DNA of 40,326 bases, from the IMG/VR virus record IMGVR_UViG_2531839665_000018, one strand, 5' to 3'. This DNA is from a virus (Duplodnaviria > Heunggongvirae > Uroviricota > Caudoviricetes). The first letter of the stretch is position 1, and every line of letters begins with the position of its first letter. The notes under the pieces are model-generated. The model was not told the DNA's origin. It worked only from the letters and a program-made list of their open reading frames with translations, and did not search any database. This document shows, piece after piece, positions 1 to 11,332 of the stretch. The position numbers were made by a program, and so were the translations under genes.

Positions 1-993
1 CTAATCGATGGACAGTTTATGGACACTTTCAGCCAGCGGATTAAAGTTGATCGCGTCCTGTAAAAAGTCCGGCGAAAAATGAGCGTACGTCATTGTTTGC
101 TGAATCGTTGCGTGCCCCAGGATTCGTTGCAACGTAACAATATTTCCGCCATTCATCATAAAGTGTGTGGCAAATGTATGACGCATGACATGCGTAGCCT
201 GCCCCTTCGGCAAATCCGGTTTCACCTCCTGAAGAATCTCCCGGAACTTCAGATAATCAACCTGATACAATAACCCCGTTCGACGGGTTTTAATCAGAGG
301 CACGACCGAATCCGCCACAGGAACCGAACGGGATTTTCCGTTTTTGGTGTTAAAGAACGTCACCCGGTTGCCAACGATATGCTCTCCACGTAGTTCCGAT
401 GCTTCACTCCATCGGGCACCAGTAGAAAGACACAGAATGGCAACACGACGCGCATCACCCTCCAGTCGCTCAAGAAGCCGTTCAATCTCATCATCAGAAA
501 GAAAGGCCATCTCTGTGTTCTGAACTTTCAGTTTTCGTATACCGCGTACAGGGTTCGCGTTGTGAAAGACCTCAGCTTCAATCAGCACCGTGAACATGGT
601 AGACAGTACGCATAAGTCACGATTAATACTGGACGGCATTAATCCGGCCTGTAATTTCTCTGACCGATATTCAAGCATAAATTTTCGCGTCATCTGACTG
701 GCGCGAGGATCTCCCATTTCACGAACAACCTTCCCTAGCCTAACCCTGTAGCTATCCCCGTAAGCCTGATTACGCCCATCAAGCATCCACCACGCATCAA
801 GCAGCTCTGATAATCGCCGCTGATCAGCTGGCTTAGCCTGCCATGGCTTGTCATGAAAGTTCTGTAACACATACTTCTCAAACTCCTGAGCCTTTGATTT
901 CAGGGCAAAGATTTTTCGAACCCGCTTTCCTTCCGCCCCCTGCGGTCTGACATCGACCTGATAACGTCCGTCTTTGAGTTGCTTAATCGACAT
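1..993 (-). CDS. int: Phage integrase, tyrosine recombinase (P2 Int-like)
   Basis: 331-aa product starting MSIKQLKDGRYQVDVRPQG, the typical N-terminus of P2-family integrases; C-terminal region has the R..H..R..Y catalytic-type residues (HVMRHTFATHF, TYAHF). The track ORF extends 5 codons further upstream to a TTG at 1008. Confidence 0.9.
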   Translation of the reverse strand: MSIKQLKDGRYQVDVRPQGAEGKRVRKIFALKSKAQEFEKYVLQNFHDKPWQAKPADQRRLSELLDAWWMLDGRNQAYGDSYRVRLGKVVREMGDPRASQMTRKFMLEYRSEKLQAGLMPSSINRDLCVLSTMFTVLIEAEVFHNANPVRGIRKLKVQNTEMAFLSDDEIERLLERLEGDARRVAILCLSTGARWSEASELRGEHIVGNRVTFFNTKNGKSRSVPVADSVVPLIKTRRTGLLYQVDYLKFREILQEVKPDLPKGQATHVMRHTFATHFMMNGGNIVTLQRILGHATIQQTMTYAHFSPDFLQDAINFNPLAESVHKLSID

Positions 994-1062
994 GATTAGC
1001 CCCTCCAACGGATAAATTAACTAAACACTCCTTGCGATATGTAATTCGCTCAATGTGTAGAG

Positions 1063-2790: not shown

Positions 2791-3141
2791 ATGAAACTAC
2801 AGCGCAATTCTTCACAGCCGCGCTTCCGCAACGGTGCGGAACGCCACGCTAACCGTTTCGCTACCAGTGCATCACGTAGCAACTCTCGCTACAGCCTGAG
2901 CGAAACACACGCAACGCCGGATGGCTACCCAGTAAAACAAATCGGCGAGCATACCTGGCTGATTGAGAAAGCTGGAATTGTGGTCCACAAATGCCCACGC
3001 AATCCGTTTACCGGAAACCGCATTTTTGCATTGAGCTGTGGCGACAATCAGTTTGGGCAGGATTTCACATTATACGAAGCACTTCGCACGGTTGATCGTC
3101 TGCTTCGCGGGCAAAGTTTTATTAAACAGGCTGATTTATAA
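2791..3141 (+). CDS. Hypothetical early protein
   Basis: 116-aa ORF in the early operon; no recognisable motif. Confidence 0.5.
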   Translation: MKLQRNSSQPRFRNGAERHANRFATSASRSNSRYSLSETHATPDGYPVKQIGEHTWLIEKAGIVVHKCPRNPFTGNRIFALSCGDNQFGQDFTLYEALRTVDRLLRGQSFIKQADL

Positions 3142-3151
3142 CGGGTGCTTT

Positions 3152-3439
3152 ATGACCAAAGACCATGCACAAGGTGTATTTATCCGTTTTATTGATTTTC
3201 GCGGTGAACTGTTATTACGTGCATCCGCTATTGACGGAGTGACTCCGGCGGGTAAAAACGGAGCCGACGAAGCCACTTACGTTTATCTGAACGGCACGCG
3301 ACTGCTTGTGGAACTTCCGTACCAGACCGTACGAGAAATCATTAGCGAAGCTGAAAAGGCACGCCAAGTTAATGGCGATGAACCCTATATCGAAATTATT
3401 TGTATGGATTCAGAAGCTGAAATTCAGAAAGCAGATTAA
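3152..3439 (+). CDS. Hypothetical early protein
   Basis: Internal ATG at 3152 of the track ORF 3038..3439 chosen because it follows the stop of the upstream gene; 95 aa. Confidence 0.45.
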   Translation: MTKDHAQGVFIRFIDFRGELLLRASAIDGVTPAGKNGADEATYVYLNGTRLLVELPYQTVREIISEAEKARQVNGDEPYIEIICMDSEAEIQKAD

Positions 3440-3450
3440 AGGGCGTTGCG

Positions 3451-3693
3451 ATGGGCAAAGAATATAAAACTCTCATTAATAAAGCACTTGAGCGTTTTTA
3501 TTTTCGCTTAAGTGCATCAGGCGCTCATGCTGAACGTGCAGCCCGTGACTCATTGACCAGGGCAATCCGGAGTCTGTATGACGTGGCTTTTTACGCTGAT
3601 GATCTGGATGCACTTAACGAACTTTCCGAGCTGATCTGTGCCGCAGAATGCGGGGAACATATTGAACCGTATAAGCTGGGGAATATTGCATGA
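3451..3693 (+). CDS. Hypothetical early protein
   Basis: 80-aa ORF, same strand, tightly packed in the early operon. Confidence 0.5.
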   Translation: MGKEYKTLINKALERFYFRLSASGAHAERAARDSLTRAIRSLYDVAFYADDLDALNELSELICAAECGEHIEPYKLGNIA

Positions 3694-3803
3694 GTATATT
3701 TATCTCATGGCTTGTTCTGATTATTTCGGTGGCCTGCGCCATTGGGATTATGCGAATTATTCATTCAGTAAAAAAGATTGAACGCTTTTTCACTGGTGAA
3801 TAA
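3690..3803 (+). CDS. Putative small membrane protein (37 aa), not in the ORF track
   Basis: ATG overlaps the upstream stop (ATGA); product MSIFISWLVLIISVACAIGIMRIIHSVKKIERFFTGE has one hydrophobic helix. Below the 60-aa track cut-off. Confidence 0.3.
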   Translation: MSIFISWLVLIISVACAIGIMRIIHSVKKIERFFTGE

Positions 3804-3896
3804 CGATACAAATAAAACATCAAATTAAATAAGAAAACGTGAAAACCATCCGTATTAACGGGGGTATTCGCACACGCAAATAACGGAGATACAAAA

Positions 3897-4307
3897 ATGC
3901 ACGCAAAAGAAGAAGGTATCATCAGAGCACTGAAAGAAATTTCAAAGACAGAAAACGAAGTAGCGAAAAAAGCCGTGGCAAATGCACATATGGACGTCGC
4001 AACCCACACACTGATAGTCGCAAGAGTCACGGCAGAAGCAGCCGAAATTATCGCAAAACAGGATGCTGAACTGGCGGTTCTCAGAACACAACCAGTCACC
4101 GGACTGGATTTGTCTAACACCGGACGCCTTATTTACACAATTGGCTCGGAGCTACAGCGATACACCATTATCGCCGGATTACAGGATAAATACCTGATCA
4201 CTCCTCACCCCATAAGGGAATCAGAGATTCTGACAAATCTCCGCCTGATAGAGCGCTCTCAAGTTGCATTCATTGATGACGCCCAACACACCGTATTTAA
4301 CGCATAG
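3897..4307 (+). CDS. Hypothetical early protein
   Basis: 136-aa ORF. Confidence 0.5.
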   Translation: MHAKEEGIIRALKEISKTENEVAKKAVANAHMDVATHTLIVARVTAEAAEIIAKQDAELAVLRTQPVTGLDLSNTGRLIYTIGSELQRYTIIAGLQDKYLITPHPIRESEILTNLRLIERSQVAFIDDAQHTVFNA

Positions 4308-4330
4308 GGTTACTGGACAAAGGGGGCGCA

Positions 4331-4534
4331 ATGGCAATTAAGCGTTTTTCCGTCATTCGTTTCACCTCCAGAGGGCGTGAATACGAAGTTGACGAACGGC
4401 TGATTAAAACGATCGACCGTCACCGTTCGCAACCTGACGCGCATCACATTTATCTCACTGACGACACTTACTTCTGCGCCACCAACGTGGTGCAGGTGAA
4501 TCTTATCAGACTGGTACAGGAGTCACGCAGATGA
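4331..4534 (+). CDS. Hypothetical early protein
   Basis: 67-aa ORF; stop overlaps the start of the next ORF. Confidence 0.4.
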   Translation: MAIKRFSVIRFTSRGREYEVDERLIKTIDRHRSQPDAHHIYLTDDTYFCATNVVQVNLIRLVQESRR

Positions 4535-4776
4535 CCATTCTGGACTACATCGCCGCCAATCCGGGTTGTAGCGGTGGAGAAATCGCCGCAGCACTGAATA
4601 CCCCAACCACAGCCATTAATGCGGAGTTACGCCGACTCTGGCGCAGCGGTTCAGTCATAAGAAAAGAGCGCAAAACAGGTGGTCGCTTTTCTTACCAGGT
4701 AAACCCGATGCAGTTCGGGTGTGGCAACCCGCTTACTCACTTGTTTAACCAGCTACTGAAGGAAGCCAGAGCATGA
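4531..4776 (+). CDS. Putative winged-helix DNA-binding protein
   Basis: 81 aa; N-terminal MTILDYIAANPGCSGGEIAAALNTPTTAINAELRRLWRSGSV looks like a wHTH; translationally coupled to neighbours. Confidence 0.45.
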   Translation: MTILDYIAANPGCSGGEIAAALNTPTTAINAELRRLWRSGSVIRKERKTGGRFSYQVNPMQFGCGNPLTHLFNQLLKEARA

Positions 4777-5072
4777 GCACCATCAACCACCAGGAACTAC
4801 GCGAACTGGCGACTGACCTGCAACGAATGGCAACGCATCAAAAATTACTGGCGTTTCGCGCAATGCTCTCGCCGTCTGCTGTGCTGGCACTGCTGGATGA
4901 GCTGGAGCACGCCAGAACCATGGCTCCAGCCATTCGCCTGACGCTCCATCATGAAATCGCTGATTTCTGCGCAACGCTGGGTTCACCTGGCGAACCGGAA
5001 ACACCGGAAGCAATACAGCGCGAGTTATTACAACGCATCAATAACGTTTTTGATTTTTTCCTTAACCAGTAA
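4773..5072 (+). CDS. Hypothetical early protein
   Basis: 99-aa ORF, start overlaps the upstream stop. Confidence 0.45.
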   Translation: MSTINHQELRELATDLQRMATHQKLLAFRAMLSPSAVLALLDELEHARTMAPAIRLTLHHEIADFCATLGSPGEPETPEAIQRELLQRINNVFDFFLNQ

Positions 5073-5083
5073 GGGATCGCAGC

Positions 5084-5287
5084 ATGAACAAAAAGACCTG
5101 GTTTCGCGCATACATGTGGGCGCTGGTATGCGTCCTCGTTTCTCTCATTCTGTATGCAGGACTACTCCCCCGAATGATTTCATCAGACAGCTCCTTCCTG
5201 GTATTGCTGGGCATTTTCATTGCCATGCTGTACCCGGCAGGCGTTGTTCGCCTTTTCAGTAAGTACATCAAGGAAATCAAACAATGA
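5084..5287 (+). CDS. Small membrane protein (two predicted TM helices)
   Basis: 67 aa, two hydrophobic stretches; stop overlaps the start of the SPFH gene (ATGA). Confidence 0.5.
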   Translation: MNKKTWFRAYMWALVCVLVSLILYAGLLPRMISSDSSFLVLLGIFIAMLYPAGVVRLFSKYIKEIKQ

Positions 5288-6114
5288 AGAAACTCAAACT
5301 CTTTCAGATTATCCCGCTTTTTGCCGCCATCCTGCTGGTTGGTTGCGATCGCGTTGAGCCAGGTAATGTGGGCATCAAAGTCAACAAACTGGGCGACGAC
5401 AAAGGCGTCGGCGAAGTGGTTGGCGTTGGCCGCTACTGGACTGGCTGGAATACCGAGGTTTACATCTTCCCGACCTTCAAACAAATGAAGACCTACGATG
5501 AGCCGTTCAGCTTCCAGATGAGTGACGGCACAACCATCGGCTATCACATCGGTGTGGCCTACAAGGTTGAACCATCAAAAGTTACTACAGTGTTTCAGAC
5601 CTACCGCAAAGGCGTGGATGACATTACCGACACTGACCTGCGCCAGAAGATCGCCGATGCACTCAACCGACTGGCCAGCAAAATGACCACCGACAAATTT
5701 ATCGACGGCGGGAAATCTGAACTACTGGATGCAGCTCTTAAAGACATTCAGGAGGAAATGACACCCATCGGCATTCAGGTAATGAGCCTCTCTTATGTCG
5801 GTAAACCGGAATATCCGCCAACCGTTATCGACAGCATTAACGCCAAAGTCACGGCAAACCAGAAAACCCTGCAACGCGAACAGGAAGTCAAGCAACGCGA
5901 AGCAGAAGCCAACATGTTGCGCGCAGAAGCTGCCGGACAGGCTGATGCCATTCGCACAAAAGCCCAGGCTGAAGCCGACGCCATTCGTTTACGCGGCGAA
6001 GCTCTGCGCCAGAATCCCGGCGTTATGGAGCTGGAAGCAATCAACAAATGGAACGGCACGCTGCCGCAATACATGACCAGCAACACCGCTGTTCCGTTTG
6101 TTCCGGTGAAGTAA
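5284..6114 (+). CDS. SPFH/band-7 (stomatin/HflK-like) domain lipoprotein
   Basis: Lipoprotein signal peptide with lipobox LLVGC; C-terminal Ala/Glu/Gln/Arg-rich coiled-coil-like tail (QREQEVKQREAEANMLRAEAAGQADAIRTKAQAEADAIRLRGE) typical of SPFH proteins. Family call made by eye, no HMM. Confidence 0.7.
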   Translation: MKKLKLFQIIPLFAAILLVGCDRVEPGNVGIKVNKLGDDKGVGEVVGVGRYWTGWNTEVYIFPTFKQMKTYDEPFSFQMSDGTTIGYHIGVAYKVEPSKVTTVFQTYRKGVDDITDTDLRQKIADALNRLASKMTTDKFIDGGKSELLDAALKDIQEEMTPIGIQVMSLSYVGKPEYPPTVIDSINAKVTANQKTLQREQEVKQREAEANMLRAEAAGQADAIRTKAQAEADAIRLRGEALRQNPGVMELEAINKWNGTLPQYMTSNTAVPFVPVK

Positions 6115-6120
6115 TTAAAC

Positions 6121-6166
6121 CCGGCCAGTGAAAATCGCTGGCCGGAGCAGTATCAGGATTTTTTTA
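6121..6166 (+). terminator. Candidate intrinsic terminator after the SPFH gene
   Basis: CCGGCCAG / CTGGCCGG 8-bp stem with 9-nt loop, then a T-run at 6159-6165 (13 nt from the stem, so marginal). Confidence 0.35.
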
Positions 6167-6282
6167 GTATGCCGTTCTCACAAAAAAACCGCTTGCCATG
6201 CCGCAATCAGTCAGGTTACATTTCCGCTGCACCTCATAAAACGGGTGCCGGGATTCTCAACCCGATACAGAGCAAAGCGCAT

Positions 6283-6303
6283 AACCGCGCAAGCGGTTTT
6301 TTT
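6283..6303 (+). terminator. Candidate intrinsic terminator (GNRA-type loop)
   Basis: AACCGC-GCAA-GCGGTT stem-loop followed by seven T. Confidence 0.4.
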
Positions 6304-6482
6304 GTGCGTACTGTATTGCCACGTCTTTTTCGCGTCAGAATTATGGCGGGGCGTACGGGGCCGACTTCGGTCGGGCCGGATTCTTTGCTCTCCGGTGTTG
6401 AGAACCCTGTACGTCTCGCCACCCCGAGATTCTCAACTCTGGATGGTGAGTTATTTCTATCACCGAGCAAAGAGGCCACACC

Positions 6483-6713
6483 ATGGCAGACCGCAAACAG
6501 CACCGCGCTATCGCGGAGCGTCGTCACATCCAGACTGAAATCAACCGCAGACTTTCCCGCGCATCACGCGTCGCGCAAATCATGCACATCAATATGCTGC
6601 ATGAGCGCAGCCACGCACTATCAAACATTTATTCCGCCTCTGTTTTCAGCTATCTGGCGGATGATCTGCACGAGCTTCAACAGCTCATCCAGCAGCAAAA
6701 CAAACTCCATTAA
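6483..6713 (+). CDS. Hypothetical protein
   Basis: 76-aa ORF with RBS AGAGG upstream. Confidence 0.45.
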   Translation: MADRKQHRAIAERRHIQTEINRRLSRASRVAQIMHINMLHERSHALSNIYSASVFSYLADDLHELQQLIQQQNKLH

Positions 6714-6785
6714 TTCCTGTTCCGGGCCTTTCCTGCACCTTGCGGCGGGAGGCCTTCGCACATCTGTAACAAGAGGATTGCCGCA

Positions 6786-7151
6786 ATGATTCTCGCCAAC
6801 GACTTTCTTGAATACCTGCTCGACACAGAACGTGATCTTGCCGCTCGCGTGCGTGATCGTTATGACATGTACCTGAAATCCCTGCCTGTACCGCAGCTCG
6901 CTAACGGAAAGATTGTTATTGATGGTCGCTACATGATTGACAGCCACGAGGGAAATTACAGGCTTTACCGCATTGAAGGTGGCACCCCGTCCGTTATTGG
7001 CATTTACCAGCGCCCATCCTCTGCAATCGTCGATGTGATTGCCGACAGCATCCGCATCACACATCGCCATGCCGACACAGAAGACACCGTGCTGGAAATT
7101 CAGCGGCTGGCTACAGTCTGCCGCGACACCCTGAATGGCATGACGAAGTAA
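6786..7151 (+). CDS. Hypothetical protein upstream of A
   Basis: 121-aa ORF immediately before the replication gene. Confidence 0.5.
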   Translation: MILANDFLEYLLDTERDLAARVRDRYDMYLKSLPVPQLANGKIVIDGRYMIDSHEGNYRLYRIEGGTPSVIGIYQRPSSAIVDVIADSIRITHRHADTEDTVLEIQRLATVCRDTLNGMTK

Positions 7152-7157
7152 ATCACT

Positions 7158-9980
7158 ATGACGGCAGAGTACATCAGGGACTGGCAACAACCGCGCCACG
7201 CAGTGGGGCGTGAAGGAACGGGGATCCCCGCTCCTGAATCCGCGCTTTCCTCCTGGCTGGATGCTTACCGGGTAGAGAACGAGCGCCGCCAGGAAATGGC
7301 TGACGCGGCGTTCTCCGCCACACCGCTGGGCAACCTGATTAATAAAAGCCTGGACGCACAGGAAAAGCAGGACAAAACCATCACACTGGCCAGAGAAGCC
7401 AGAAAACAGGCACGCGGTGCGGTGGATGAAGCCATGGCCTCGCTGCGCCTGCTGCCGTCCTATCTGCGCGATCCGCTTATTCGCCACCTCTCCTTCCTGC
7501 GCAAAAAACAGGAAGCCGATCGCCGGAAAGGCAAAAAGAGCTGGCAGGCGGAACGCTATGCACGCGGAACCCTGCGCAAAATATTGGAACGTCTGGCCCG
7601 CACTGACGGACGCTGGCTGACTCCGGGTTATCGCTCCCTTGCCGGACGTGAACGTCTGGACGATTTACTTTACCTGCCGCAGCTCAACAAACACCAGATA
7701 CAGACACTGGCCGTCATGACGGCGGCAATGTTCAGCAGCACCTTCGAAAAACTCTGCGATGGCTTTGGCGCGACCGATGGCGAGCTGACCATGGATATAA
7801 CGCTGAAGGCGTATCAGCTGCTGGCTCGCATGGCGTTACATCTGCACACAGTGCCTCCGCATTATGACGCACTGACAACAGACAAAGACCGGAGGAACGA
7901 ACCGGACACAGAACTGCTGCCGGGTGCAATCCTTCGCCTGACCTGTGCGGACTGGTGGAAACGCAAATTGTGGCTTTTACGTTGCGAATGGAGAGAGGAA
8001 CAACTCCGCGCTGCCTGTCTGGTTTCCAGAAAAACATCCCCCTATCTGAGTCAGGATGCATTAAGTGAATTTCGCGCACAGCGCGAGAAAACACGCGATT
8101 TCCTGAAAAGTTTCATGCTGGAAAATGAAGACGGGTTCACGATTGATCTCGAGACAGTGTATTACGCGGGAGTAAGTAACCCGGTTCACCGTAAGGCAGA
8201 AATGATGGCCACCATGAAGGGGCTGGAACTTCTGGCCGAAGCCCGTGGCGACAAAGCGGTGTTTCTGACTGTCACCTGCCCGTCAAAATACCACGCTACA
8301 ACAGAGAACGGTCATCCGAATCCCAAATGGAACGGGGCCACCATGCGCGACTCCAGCGATTACCTGGTTAACACGTTTTTTGCGGCGGTCCGCAAGAAAC
8401 TGAACCGCGACGGCCTGCGCTGGTATGGCATCCGCACGGTGGAGCCTCACCATGACGGCACCGTGCACTGGCATATGATGGTCTTTGCTCATCCGGAAGA
8501 AATCGACACCATTGTGTCCCACACCCGCGATATTGCCATTCAGGAAGATCGTCACGAGCTGGGCGATGATATTACTCCGCGCTTTAAGGCGGAGTATGTC
8601 GACGGCTCAAAAGGCACGCCAACCAGCTACATCGCCACCTACATCGGAAAAAACCTGGACAGCCGCGCCGTGGATGGCATCGACCCGAAAACAGGCAAAC
8701 CACGCGTTGACCACGAAACCGGAAAATCAATGACCGAGAGCGTGGAACGCGCCATTGGCTGGGCGCGCCTTCACCGGGTCCGCCAGTTCCAGTTCTTTGG
8801 CATCCCCTCCCGTCAGGTGTGGCGTGAACTGCGTCGCCTTGCCAGCCAGATGGCACGCAACCCGGAAGGCCCGCAACGGCTGAAGGATGACGCAATGGAT
8901 GCGGTTCTTGCTGCCGCTGATGCCGGATGTTTTGCCACCTACATTGAGAAACAGGGAGGCGTACTTGTTCCACGCAAGGACTACCTGATTCGCACCGCCT
9001 ACGACCTCGCAGATGAGCTGAACGATTACGGCGAACAGAGCGTACAGATTTACGGGATCTGGTCACCACTCATCGGGGAATCCTCCCGTGTGTGCACGCA
9101 CCCGGATAACTGGAAGCTGGTAAGACGTAAACCGGGAGTAGAAGACAGCGCCCGCGAAAATGGTTTTGACCTTCAGGGCGGCCCTGCCGCCCCTTGGACT
9201 CGTGGCAATAACTGTCCCCGTGTACAGGAAACGGACAACAACGGGGCAGAACAGCCGGAAGAACGGCCAGCACCGTGGCCGCAGCTCCCTGACGGCGTTG
9301 AAGTGAACGAATGGATGCGCTCACTGAAACGGCACGAACGCCGGGCGCTGATGCGTTCGCTTCGTGACAAACAGGCAAAAAACAGCAGTGATGAAATGCA
9401 GAGCTGGACACAGAGCCGCAAACAGCAGCGGCCTTTGCCTGATAACCACGAATTACTCGCTAAAGAATGGCGGGAGTCTGCCGAATCTCTCGGCCTGCAT
9501 ATCGGTGAACAGCAGATGCAGCACCTGCTACGGGGCGGCAGCCTGTACGTTGACGGCAGCATCATTGCACCGCAGGGATATGAAATTGTACGCAAACCGG
9601 ATACCCGCCCGGACAGCCGAATCACGCAGCTCTGGCAGCACCTGAGCCGTAATCACGGCGTAAGCAGCACGGAGATCCGCCATAACCCGGTCGCCAGCTA
9701 TCTGGCACAGCTGGGGGCATCAGACCCCGGAGCCGCCGCACGCCTGGCATCCGCACTTCAGCAGGACCAGAACACCATGAAAACACCCGTTACCGTGCTT
9801 TCTGACATGCTGCGCGCCATCCGCGGCGCAGAGCACGCACAGAGAATCAGTGAAACCACTGAACGCGCCAGCCGCAAAGCAGACCTGCTGCAGGGTGGCC
9901 TGACCAGTGGAAACAAAAAACAGACAGAAACGGGACTCACGAATCCCGTAAATGAGCAAAAAACGCGCAGCGATATATGA
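7158..9980 (+). CDS. A: Rolling-circle replication initiation endonuclease (P2 gpA family) with a ~200-aa C-terminal extension
   Basis: Conserved HUH-type core: VEPHHDGTVHWHMMVFAHPEE and tyrosine-bearing SYIATYIGKNL; 940 aa, longer than typical A proteins. Confidence 0.85.
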   Translation: MTAEYIRDWQQPRHAVGREGTGIPAPESALSSWLDAYRVENERRQEMADAAFSATPLGNLINKSLDAQEKQDKTITLAREARKQARGAVDEAMASLRLLPSYLRDPLIRHLSFLRKKQEADRRKGKKSWQAERYARGTLRKILERLARTDGRWLTPGYRSLAGRERLDDLLYLPQLNKHQIQTLAVMTAAMFSSTFEKLCDGFGATDGELTMDITLKAYQLLARMALHLHTVPPHYDALTTDKDRRNEPDTELLPGAILRLTCADWWKRKLWLLRCEWREEQLRAACLVSRKTSPYLSQDALSEFRAQREKTRDFLKSFMLENEDGFTIDLETVYYAGVSNPVHRKAEMMATMKGLELLAEARGDKAVFLTVTCPSKYHATTENGHPNPKWNGATMRDSSDYLVNTFFAAVRKKLNRDGLRWYGIRTVEPHHDGTVHWHMMVFAHPEEIDTIVSHTRDIAIQEDRHELGDDITPRFKAEYVDGSKGTPTSYIATYIGKNLDSRAVDGIDPKTGKPRVDHETGKSMTESVERAIGWARLHRVRQFQFFGIPSRQVWRELRRLASQMARNPEGPQRLKDDAMDAVLAAADAGCFATYIEKQGGVLVPRKDYLIRTAYDLADELNDYGEQSVQIYGIWSPLIGESSRVCTHPDNWKLVRRKPGVEDSARENGFDLQGGPAAPWTRGNNCPRVQETDNNGAEQPEERPAPWPQLPDGVEVNEWMRSLKRHERRALMRSLRDKQAKNSSDEMQSWTQSRKQQRPLPDNHELLAKEWRESAESLGLHIGEQQMQHLLRGGSLYVDGSIIAPQGYEIVRKPDTRPDSRITQLWQHLSRNHGVSSTEIRHNPVASYLAQLGASDPGAAARLASALQQDQNTMKTPVTVLSDMLRAIRGAEHAQRISETTERASRKADLLQGGLTSGNKKQTETGLTNPVNEQKTRSDI

Positions 9981-10056: not shown

Positions 10057-11016
10057 ATGAAAATTTGTATCGACGACGGCTCCACCAACATCAAGCTGGC
10101 ATGGACTGAGAACGGCGAACGCCGCAACGCCATCAGCCCGAACAGCTTCAAGTCGGAATGGTCTGCGCCGTTCGGTGGCACGCAGCCCGCGAACTACATG
10201 CTTGATGGCGTGCGCTATGGTTTTGATCCGGTCAGCGATCGCTTTGTCCAGACGACCGACACGCAATACCAATACAGTGATGTGAATGTCATTGCCATTC
10301 ATCACGCGCTGGTCAAATCAGGCATCACGCCACAGGAGGTGGATGTGGTTGTTACCCTGCCACTGAGCGAGTATTTCGACACAAACGCACAGCCGGACAT
10401 AGCCAACATCAACCGCAAAAAAGCGAACGTTATGCGCCCGGTGGAGTACCAGAACGGCGAAGCATTCACTATCCGTAACGTGCGGGTTATGCCTGAATCC
10501 ATTCCGGCTGGCTTTAAGGCACTGGCTGACATGAGTCCGTTTGAATCCCTGCTGATTGTGGATTTGGGCGGAACCACGCTGGATGTGGCAAAGGTTCAGG
10601 GGCAGCTGGCAGGTATCAGCCAGGTGTTTTGCGATCCACACGTAGGCGTTTCCCTGATGGCTGATGCCGTGCTGTCGGTGATGGCCACTAACGGTATGCG
10701 TACCAGTCACCACATCGCCAATACCATTATTGAGCACCGTCACGATGAAGCCTGGCTGCGCCAGCACATTCACAATGACGCGCATTACAACAGCCTGATG
10801 GCGGTTATTCGTGAAAAGGAGGAGACACTGAAACAACGAGTGATCCGCGCGCTGGCGGGTTTTTCCGGTTACGGGCGGGTGATGGTTGTCGGTGGAGGGG
10901 CGGAGATTGTGGCACCCGCTATCCGCGAAGCCTGCGGAGTTAATGCGACTTTCATCACGGACGGGGTGCCACAGTTTGCTCTGGTTAATGGGCTGTACGC
11001 AATGAACAAGGAGTAA
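10057..11016 (+). CDS. parM: ParM/StbA-family actin-like segregation ATPase
   Basis: Characteristic motifs along the whole length: IDDGSTNIKLAW, ISPNSFKSEW, YSDVNVIAIHHAL, VMPESIPAG, LLIVDLGGTTLD, FSGYGRVMVVGGGAE, LVNGLY. Confidence 0.85.
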   Translation: MKICIDDGSTNIKLAWTENGERRNAISPNSFKSEWSAPFGGTQPANYMLDGVRYGFDPVSDRFVQTTDTQYQYSDVNVIAIHHALVKSGITPQEVDVVVTLPLSEYFDTNAQPDIANINRKKANVMRPVEYQNGEAFTIRNVRVMPESIPAGFKALADMSPFESLLIVDLGGTTLDVAKVQGQLAGISQVFCDPHVGVSLMADAVLSVMATNGMRTSHHIANTIIEHRHDEAWLRQHIHNDAHYNSLMAVIREKEETLKQRVIRALAGFSGYGRVMVVGGGAEIVAPAIREACGVNATFITDGVPQFALVNGLYAMNKE

Positions 11017-11020
11017 ACCA

Positions 11021-11332
11021 ATGACGACACCAACCAGAAGAATAAGTTTCTATCTGAAGCCAGCTGCCGTCAAGAACGAAGGAGAAGCATGCGCCTGGCT
11101 GGACAGCCTTACACCAGAAGCCCGCAAAAGCGGCCAACGCGTGGCTTTTCTGGCCGGGCTGGCACTTCTGAAGACGAATCCGGCAGAGGCTTACCGACTG
11201 GCCGCATGGGCTGATGATGAGATGTTACCTGTGACACAAATCAGCTCAAAAAAGTTTGACGCACAGTCTGCACCAGTGGCTAAGATAACCAGCCAGATGG
11301 CTGGGAATATCCGGGCGTTATTTCCTGAGTAA
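11021..11332 (+). CDS. parR: ParR-like partition adaptor
   Basis: 103-aa ORF 4 bp downstream of parM; N-terminal pattern RRISFYLKP...LDSL...LAGLALL resembles ParR; call also rests on synteny. Confidence 0.55.
   Translation: MTTPTRRISFYLKPAAVKNEGEACAWLDSLTPEARKSGQRVAFLAGLALLKTNPAEAYRLAAWADDEMLPVTQISSKKFDAQSAPVAKITSQMAGNIRALFPE

Follow-up and report, generated by a model that had tools for sequence, protein, structure and literature searches.

An overlapping gene pair for a small membrane protein and an SPFH lipoprotein forms an optional cassette in a P2-like prophage

The IMG/VR virus record IMGVR_UViG_2531839665_000018, a stretch of 40,326 nucleotides (nt) that is called the window throughout, is a P2-like (Peduoviridae, Xuanwuvirus), P88-like prophage. 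Its plus strand carries a small gene for a membrane protein of 67 amino acids (aa; positions 5084 to 5287) and a gene for a 276-aa lipoprotein with an SPFH (Band_7) domain that is a homologue of N4 gp20 (5284 to 6114), both taken from the list of open reading frames (ORFs). The two ORFs share the sequence ATGA, in which the ATG (5284-5286) is the start of the lipoprotein gene and the TGA (5285-5287) is the stop of the small gene. Shine-Dalgarno-like purine tracts were found for the small gene (AAGGGA, 5071-5076) and for the lipoprotein gene (AAGGAA, 5270-5275). Translational coupling of the pair had been proposed earlier from the sequence alone (the original prediction), and the ATGA overlap bears this out. 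Together with a ribosome-binding site and a hairpin with a T-run at the 3' end, the two genes make up an optional cassette on the plus strand (5074 to 6178). Two additional mechanical ORFs, one in another frame (4951 to 5262, 103 aa) and one antisense (5062 to 5547, 161 aa), were treated as spurious, because only near-identical loci have them and they lack any transmembrane or family signal.

The lipoprotein starts with a signal peptide that ends in the lipobox LLVGC (5284 to 5346, plus strand). The N-terminus reads MKKLKLFQIIPLFAAILLVGC and continues with DR; the lipobox cysteine, Cys21 (codon 5344-5346), is followed by Asp at position +2. Residues 23-209 (5350 to 5910) matched the Pfam family Band_7 (PF01145) with 108.2 bits at a gathering cut-off of 23.6 (E 6.3e-31), and the Pfam envelope was used together with the strands and helices of the AlphaFold model to delimit the SPFH domain. 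The protein also matched phrog_200, annotated as 'lipoprotein', with an E value of 8.4e-112. Thus, the SPFH lipoprotein that had been anticipated is indeed encoded. The AlphaFold model (predicted local distance difference test score, pLDDT, of 71) comprises the SPFH fold plus a long helix of residues 179-243 (5818 to 6012). The tail rich in A, E, Q and R that had been noticed earlier turned out to be this single 65-residue helix, which corresponds to the coiled-coil 'wall' segment of SPFH cages and aligns with helical regions of HflK and prohibitin. It is followed by a conserved C-terminal motif, LEAINKWNGTLP (6031 to 6066), which was defined with a diverse alignment (A2) in which W256 and G258 are invariant and P261 is nearly invariant.

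Comparison of the model with solved structures using Foldseek yielded prohibitin, HflK/C, erlin, stomatin, flotillin and QmcA with a probability of 1.0, and major vault protein was also matched; the alignments spanned 245-300 columns at 14-18% identity. A family profile gave the best E value for prohibitin-1 (1.6e-10, residues 15-239), followed by HflK (2e-8), HflC (5e-7) and QmcA (3e-6). The relationship to HflK/HflC that had been suggested from the sequence is therefore weak but real. It does not amount to orthology, as the curated equivalog models of HflK and HflC (TIGR01933, TIGR01932, PRK10930 and PRK11029) reached only 18.6-25.2 bits compared with cut-offs of 134-660, including scores of 23-25 bits where the cut-offs are 134-159.

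Several features bear on the location of the lipoprotein. Cys21 is invariant in the diverse alignment, and Asp is present at +2 in 103 of 120 close enterobacterial homologues, whereas the N4-type proteins have Tyr at this position. By the '+2 rule' of textbooks, Asp at +2 serves as a Lol-avoidance signal and leads to the retention of E. coli lipoproteins in the inner membrane. In about one quarter of the cluster representatives described below, no lipobox could be detected; the majority of these retain one N-terminal hydrophobic helix, which can serve as an anchor in the inner membrane only. The invariant Cys21, the Asp at +2, the helix-anchored variants and the integral-membrane partner all argue for an assembly at the inner membrane, and from these features we infer that the lipoprotein is anchored there and faces the periplasm. 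A variant that is common in enterobacteria (P0117, 175 contigs) has Tyr in place of the lipobox cysteine (…MGIIGYDRVEPG…); judged from this exchange, it could not be lipidated and may have an uncleaved anchor or be defective.

The 67-aa partner has two hydrophobic segments, at about residues 6-33 and 31-58, and basic ends, and it matched phrog_1130 ('membrane protein') with an E value of 1.3e-22, in accordance with the two-helix membrane protein that had been expected. Both termini are predicted to be cytoplasmic and the loop between the helices (LLPRMISSDSS) periplasmic; within this loop the motif P-x-[LM]-[IV]-S-[SA] is conserved among homologues. No Pfam family was found for the partner at E values of up to 0.01. 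The possibility that it is NfeD-like, as the original prediction had raised, was not borne out: neither the partner nor seven homologous partners gave a significant Pfam match, the latter yielding sub-threshold noise only and no NfeD. An NfeD-like protein (PF01957, OB fold) was rejected on these grounds, and also because the two helices fill the 67 aa and leave no room for an OB domain.

Next, we considered how widely this pair occurs. SPFH homologues were found in 638 of 50,697 phage records in a search at the protein level. All fetched loci with sufficient upstream DNA comprised 99 distinct SPFH genes with 55-100% identity, and 97 of these are preceded by an ORF with two or more transmembrane segments and the loop motif P-x-[LM]-[IV]-S-[SA]. 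The partner ORF typically overlaps the SPFH gene by 1-20 nt. Pairs of partner and SPFH gene are present in the N4-type phage Jura (gp19/gp20, annotated against N4 YP_950497/YP_950498), the N4-like Erwinia phage Fifi051 (gp65/gp64), the phage-plasmid SSU5 (061/062), Raoultella phage Ro1 of the Vequintavirinae (gp127/gp125), Pseudomonas phage vB_Pae_U2 (an 84-aa ORF and a lipoprotein), Burkholderia phage phiE125 (gp44/gp43), Agrobacterium phage OLIVR5 of the Pootjesviridae (gp156/gp155), and Stenotrophomonas phage Pokken, in which an unannotated partner lies beside the SPFH gene. In Ro1, a 54-aa soluble ORF, gp126, lies between gp127 and gp125 (1620-2867 of our locus L088), which is the only non-adjacent pair that was seen. 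One IMG/VR contig carries an SPFH copy that is 99.6% identical to Jura gp20. Among the distant phage SPFH genes, the copies of Caulobacter phiCbK-like phages and of Kayvirus have other membrane partners, and no partner was detected at the SPFH loci of a crAss-like phage and of PMBT37.

The mature SPFH coding region has a DNA identity of 87-93% in Stx2a-converting phages, in phiP27 (gene L05) and in P1-like phage-plasmids. In many records of Shiga-toxin phages the gene is wrongly labelled 'serine protease'. In phiP27 and in the P1-like record, the first bases of the SPFH gene overlap with a small two-helix ORF; this partner is missing from the public annotation of phiP27 (locus L002, 2762-2950), the P1-like MH422554 (L003, 2730-2966) and Pokken (L244, about 700-900). 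The cassette or its SPFH part matched 716 of 5,426 complete E. coli genomes (about 13%), in prophages as well as phage-plasmids, with 418 chromosomal and 390 plasmid places. A scan of the genome collection with a closer alignment (A1) gave 15 loci only.

Natural fusions indicate that the two proteins belong together. A HMMER search of 1.84 billion representatives retrieved 221 clusters at E values of up to 1e-30, and the best 150 of these 221 clusters (representatives at 50% identity) were inspected. Most of the 150 representatives were lipoproteins of about 280 aa. However, 23 of them (about 15%) had a length of 320-390 aa and an N-terminal transmembrane extension, and at least 13 of these 23 carried the strict partner motif, while several more carried a near-motif. 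Typically, a linker connects the two helices to a third hydrophobic segment, which bears a lipobox and precedes the SPFH domain; one example (P0001) is a P1-type partner fused to its SPFH protein. The existence of such fusions argues for a physical partnership. It also implies that the C-terminus of the partner is cytoplasmic and that its conserved loop faces the periplasm, as the exported SPFH domain does.

The two proteins differ strongly in their conservation. The mature SPFH proteins of the window phage, the P1-like phage and phiP27 share 96-98% identity, whereas the partners of the latter two are only 46% (P1-like) and 21% (phiP27) identical to that of the window and the signal peptides 32-42%. 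DNA homology to the phiP27 and P1-like copies sets in abruptly at 5335-5341, immediately upstream of the codon for Cys21. This pattern has two possible explanations: either the cassette is a mosaic whose parts recombined at the lipobox, or the partner diverges much more rapidly than the scaffold, as would suit a protein that determines specificity.

The cassette turned out to be an optional part of its phage type. Citrobacter phage Shae_phiSM matches the window on both sides, at 3000-5076 (97%) and at 6179-7500 (91%), but carries a 183-aa helix-turn-helix (HTH) protein in place of the pair (3388-3939 of locus L084). To survey this slot, 81 related phage contigs were retrieved via the flanking Ead/Ea22-like gene. 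The slot contained the SPFH pair in 34 of the 81 contigs, in three of them together with extra genes, it was empty in another 34, in which 17 nt replace positions 5074-6178 of the window, and it contained only an HTH (DNA-binding) gene in the remaining 13. Presence and absence across relatives, a comparison that the original prediction had put forward, thus revealed a polymorphic slot. As it is empty or differently filled in relatives, the cassette is dispensable for the P88-like phage type, and near-identical P2-like phages without the cassette exist. The alternative cargo is a protein of about 185 aa with weak matches to HTH domains (Shae_phiSM and 13 IMG/VR loci, e.g., L253 and L258), sometimes with an extra ORF of 48-66 aa; one contig (L256) holds the HTH gene and the SPFH pair together. 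A foreign base composition was considered and rejected, as the GC content of the cassette is 0.513 compared with 0.514 for the window. Within the prophage, the region 4700-6400 has 94.8% DNA identity to Escherichia phage P88, the SPFH protein is 98.6% identical to that of P88, and the chromosome of E. coli CD45 contains the cassette at 100% identity.

The genomic setting is that of the cox-side operon. The integrase gene (1-1008, minus strand) is followed by a gene for an HTH repressor, and on the plus strand the genes for a Cox-like protein, DUF4761, DUF4754, a winged-helix protein and an Ead/Ea22-like protein precede the pair. A scan for sigma-70-like promoters found none on the plus strand between 1000 and 6192. 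No convincing promoter was present upstream of the P1-like or phiP27 copies either, although such simple scans are weak evidence. The pair is co-directional with and downstream of the cox-like gene, in line with the early-operon location that had been proposed, and it is most simply read as a member of the early lytic operon because no promoter-like site was found between 1000 and 6192. At its 3' end, inside the cassette boundaries, lies a GC-rich hairpin of 10 base pairs on the plus strand (6122-6144; -24.5 kcal/mol and z -3.04 by RNA folding), together with a run of seven T (6159-6165). The hairpin was not called by the terminator scan, and it is not a canonical intrinsic terminator because the U-run is 14 nt away. 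It is possible that the hairpin and the T-run (6122-6165) act as a non-canonical terminator. Of the terminator-like hairpins that had been expected after the pair, only this one stands, in non-canonical form, since the remaining hairpins belong to the isrK and C4 RNAs.

Downstream of the pair, the plus strand encodes isrK, the C4 RNA, a 'derepression' protein, replication protein A (7158-9980) and ParM/StbB-like proteins. The isrK small RNA (6229-6303, 63 bits) and the C4 antisense RNA (6339-6426, 78.5 bits) were both identified with Rfam above the gathering scores; promoter-like sites precede or overlap them at 6193-6222 and 6316-6344, respectively. They are followed by a gene for a 76-aa protein of the 'Derepression' family (6483-6713, PF25738), and a weak match to a c4-a1b1 target was found at 4686-4735 (E 0.65). 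The region 6193-6713 resembles the antisense-controlled anti-repressor modules of the P1/Gifsy type, here in a P2-like phage. Downstream of gene A, the region 10057-11332 contains genes for a ParM-like actin (PF06406/PF21523) and a plasmid-stability protein of the StbB type, as in P88, which suggests that this P2-like phage can partition as a plasmid. A second variable slot (3881-4319) holds an ORF of 136 aa (3897-4307; phrog_9338, function not annotated), which is present in the window and in Shae_phiSM and absent from P88.

The closest known relatives of the pair are N4 gp19/gp20 (PHROG 1130 and 200), which are also represented by SSU5_061/062, phiE125 gp44/43 and YPMT1.49c of the Y. pestis plasmid pMT1 and have the same two-gene layout. 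As in the N4 type, a small two-helix gene overlaps a gene for an SPFH lipoprotein of about 276 aa, and the loop motif is common to both. Gp20 of the N4-type phage Jura is 61.5% identical to the SPFH protein of the window, while its partner is only 27% identical, and the Jura pair is flanked by terminators. In contrast to N4, where the pair is part of the genome of a lytic podovirus, the pair of the window is an optional cassette in the early operon of a temperate P2-like phage.

The similarities to cellular systems are more limited. HflK/HflC likewise have an SPFH domain, a long helix, a C-terminal segment and the periplasm-facing orientation predicted for the phage protein; however, they form a heteropair with N-terminal transmembrane helices, whereas the phage module consists of one lipid-anchored SPFH protein and a two-helix partner. 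Prohibitin (PHB1/PHB2), with prohibitin-1 as the best profile match and among the top fold matches, faces a periplasm-equivalent compartment and partners an FtsH-type protease. It differs in being eukaryotic and hetero-oligomeric, in having a transmembrane-helix anchor and in lacking a small partner gene. In SPFH-NfeD operons (QmcA-YbbJ, YqiK-YqiJ and the archaeal PH1511-PH1510), an SPFH gene is also co-transcribed with a gene for a small membrane protein, and the QmcA-YbbJ cage structure 8z5g matches the model of the lipoprotein. Yet the partner of the window has no NfeD/OB domain and the lipoprotein is predicted to be exported, whereas QmcA and YqiK face the cytoplasm. The Kayvirus proteins MbpV/MbpS are also a small membrane protein and an SPFH protein encoded by abutting genes (PMC7150955), but MbpS is only 24.5% identical and has an N-terminal transmembrane anchor, MbpV contains a single helix and no loop motif, and that pair lies in the lysis region.

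Our preferred reading, to which we give slightly less than an even chance, is that the N4 gp19/gp20-type pair is one conserved phage module, present here as an optional cassette in the early lytic (cox-side) operon, and that it forms a periplasm-facing SPFH ring or dome with its partner that serves as a conditionally useful accessory. According to this proposal, the 276-aa protein would cross the inner membrane, receive a lipid at Cys21 and stay on the periplasmic side of this membrane. The SPFH domain, the 65-residue helix and the conserved C-terminus, KW(N/D)G-LP, would build the ring or dome, and the 67-aa hairpin protein, with both termini inside, would be the membrane-embedded part of the same assembly. 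The assembly would fence off a patch of the inner membrane during early lytic growth and could thereby control access to the quality-control machinery of this membrane, perhaps with an FtsH-type protease as the client. FtsH-type proteases are, speculatively, the leading client candidate, because the family is nearest to prohibitin and HflK/C and is on the same side of the membrane. We read the module as neither a core step of phage development nor a dedicated lysis-lysogeny switch.

Several observations weigh against this proposal. The similarity to HflK/C is weak (14-18% identity), and the confidence of the structural model is moderate, with pLDDT values below 50 for residues 256-276, such that the C-terminus is unmodelled. 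A basic residue at +3, here Arg, may weaken retention by Asp at +2, although this effect is uncertain. A conserved scaffold beside a diverged partner would not be expected for a tight structural pair. The SPFH genes of Kayvirus and of crAss-like phages adjoin lysis genes, which hints at another role. Lastly, no functional study of any member of the phage SPFH family was found in full-text searches of the literature; genome papers echo a connection of HflK/C with lysogeny only speculatively (PMC10269572, PMC4936722), and according to a paper from 2026 (PMC13239085) it 'remains unclear' why the gene is there.

A bolder extension of the preferred reading assigns different tasks to the two proteins. 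The pair would represent a class of phage membrane device that has not been described before, namely a lipid-anchored, periplasm-facing SPFH cage with its fast-evolving partner as a specificity adapter. In phages ranging from N4 to P1-, P2- and lambda-like ones, it would shield or re-wire part of the inner membrane, be it for superinfection exclusion, for neutralising abortive-infection effectors that attack the membrane, or for caging FtsH. We regard this extension as doubtful.

Superinfection exclusion or anti-phage defence, in which a periplasm-facing assembly would block the DNA entry of other phages or membrane damage, was considered as an explanation in its own right and appears unlikely, but it accounts for several of the observations. 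The pair is the optional cargo of a polymorphic slot, as conflict genes typically are, the cassette is widespread (the 716 of 5,426 E. coli genomes), and a hypervariable partner beside a conserved scaffold resembles a specificity module. Lipoproteins of the envelope and small membrane proteins are also classic exclusion factors, e.g., Llp of T5, Ltp of TP-J34 and Imm/Sp of T4 (PMC9586334, PMC3952083). A known defence system was rejected, however, because neither protein had a significant match in a search of PADLOC-DB 2.0: the SPFH protein matched no family, and the partner matched only PDC-M18B (E 0.0078) with no passing stretch. Furthermore, a pair that lies in the lytic early operon and has no promoter-like site of its own may not be expressed in the lysogen. 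Against a role in exclusion it also counts that the slot is reportedly not among the defence hotspots of P2. A full-text search of PMC9122126 retrieved no mention of SPFH or Band 7.

A role in lysis timing or membrane integrity is improbable. The SPFH ring might sequester or regulate a holin-like partner, or it might buffer the membrane against premature lysis or the pores of abortive infection. The architecture of the partner, with two helices, both termini inside and a basic tail, is indeed like that of class II holins, but the match to a holin family of Pfam was insignificant (E 0.044). The Kayvirus SPFH gene mbpS follows the holin-like mbpV next to lysK (PMC7150955), and a crAss-like phage has a peptidoglycan hydrolase gene two genes downstream of its SPFH gene; yet these proteins are only 24-32% identical to the one studied here, and their partners are different or absent. 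In addition, bacterial SPFH proteins have been tied to membrane-stress responses (PMC8581546). The location of the pair away from the lysis genes in the window phage, N4, SSU5, P1-like phages and phiP27 does not favour this explanation.

According to the original prediction, the pair would mimic HflK/C, modulate FtsH and thereby tune the stability of lysogeny regulators and the decision between lysis and lysogeny. This explanation has the merit that prohibitin and HflK/C, to which the family is closest among solved structures, both associate with FtsH-type proteases, and that the orientation towards the periplasm, inferred from the lipobox, is like that of HflK/C. Moreover, phages are known to target FtsH, lambda CIII being an example, and the phiP27 pair sits in the early region proximal to int and xis. 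However, the same pair is present in N4 and other Schitoviridae, in Vequintavirinae and in Pootjesviridae, which are virulent families, and it is missing from near-identical P2-like phages. Because many SPFH homologues occur in strictly lytic phages, tuning of lysogeny cannot be the general role of the family, and a dedicated part in the lysis-lysogeny decision is unlikely as its function. The failure of the HflK/HflC models and the presence of a single SPFH gene, without a transmembrane helix, further weaken the analogy. The switch genes that were found in the window are of the C-repressor/Cox kind, a finding that was made without a search for a CII-like, FtsH-labile regulator. Taken together, we consider modulation of FtsH for the sake of the lysogeny decision quite improbable for this pair.

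Lysogenic conversion by a surface-exposed or vesicle-borne lipoprotein that alters host-animal interactions is highly improbable: the precedent is PM0222, a possibly related HflK/C-like protein (25-35 kDa) of a Pasteurella multocida prophage, which is found in outer-membrane vesicles, activates TLR1/2 and upon deletion attenuates virulence (PMC9872710), but stimulation of TLR2 is a general property of bacterial lipoproteins, members of the family abound in lytic and environmental phages, and the pair is located in a lytic operon.

The module belongs to a large, annotated but functionally uncharacterised phage family, whose novelty within the SPFH theme would lie in the lipid anchor, the periplasm-facing orientation, the dedicated non-NfeD partner and the mobility between phage types. 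SPFH cages such as HflK/C, prohibitin, stomatin and flotillin are under intense structural study, whereas the phage-encoded version is not. The pair is present in hundreds of sequenced phages, lytic as well as temperate, including the model phage N4, phage-plasmids (SSU5, P1-like and Y. pestis pMT1) and Shiga-toxin phages. Its domain content is unsurprising, but it poses a clean open question with good natural controls: its function is directly testable, because both genes are short, the phage can do without them, and nature provides isogenic phages that carry or lack the cassette. Even if the cage does not trap FtsH or block phage entry, the pair remains a well-defined and widespread module that the databases label only as 'lipoprotein' or, wrongly, as 'serine protease'. 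If it is true that the cage traps FtsH or blocks the entry of other phages, it would represent a new mechanism of host takeover or of competition between phages.

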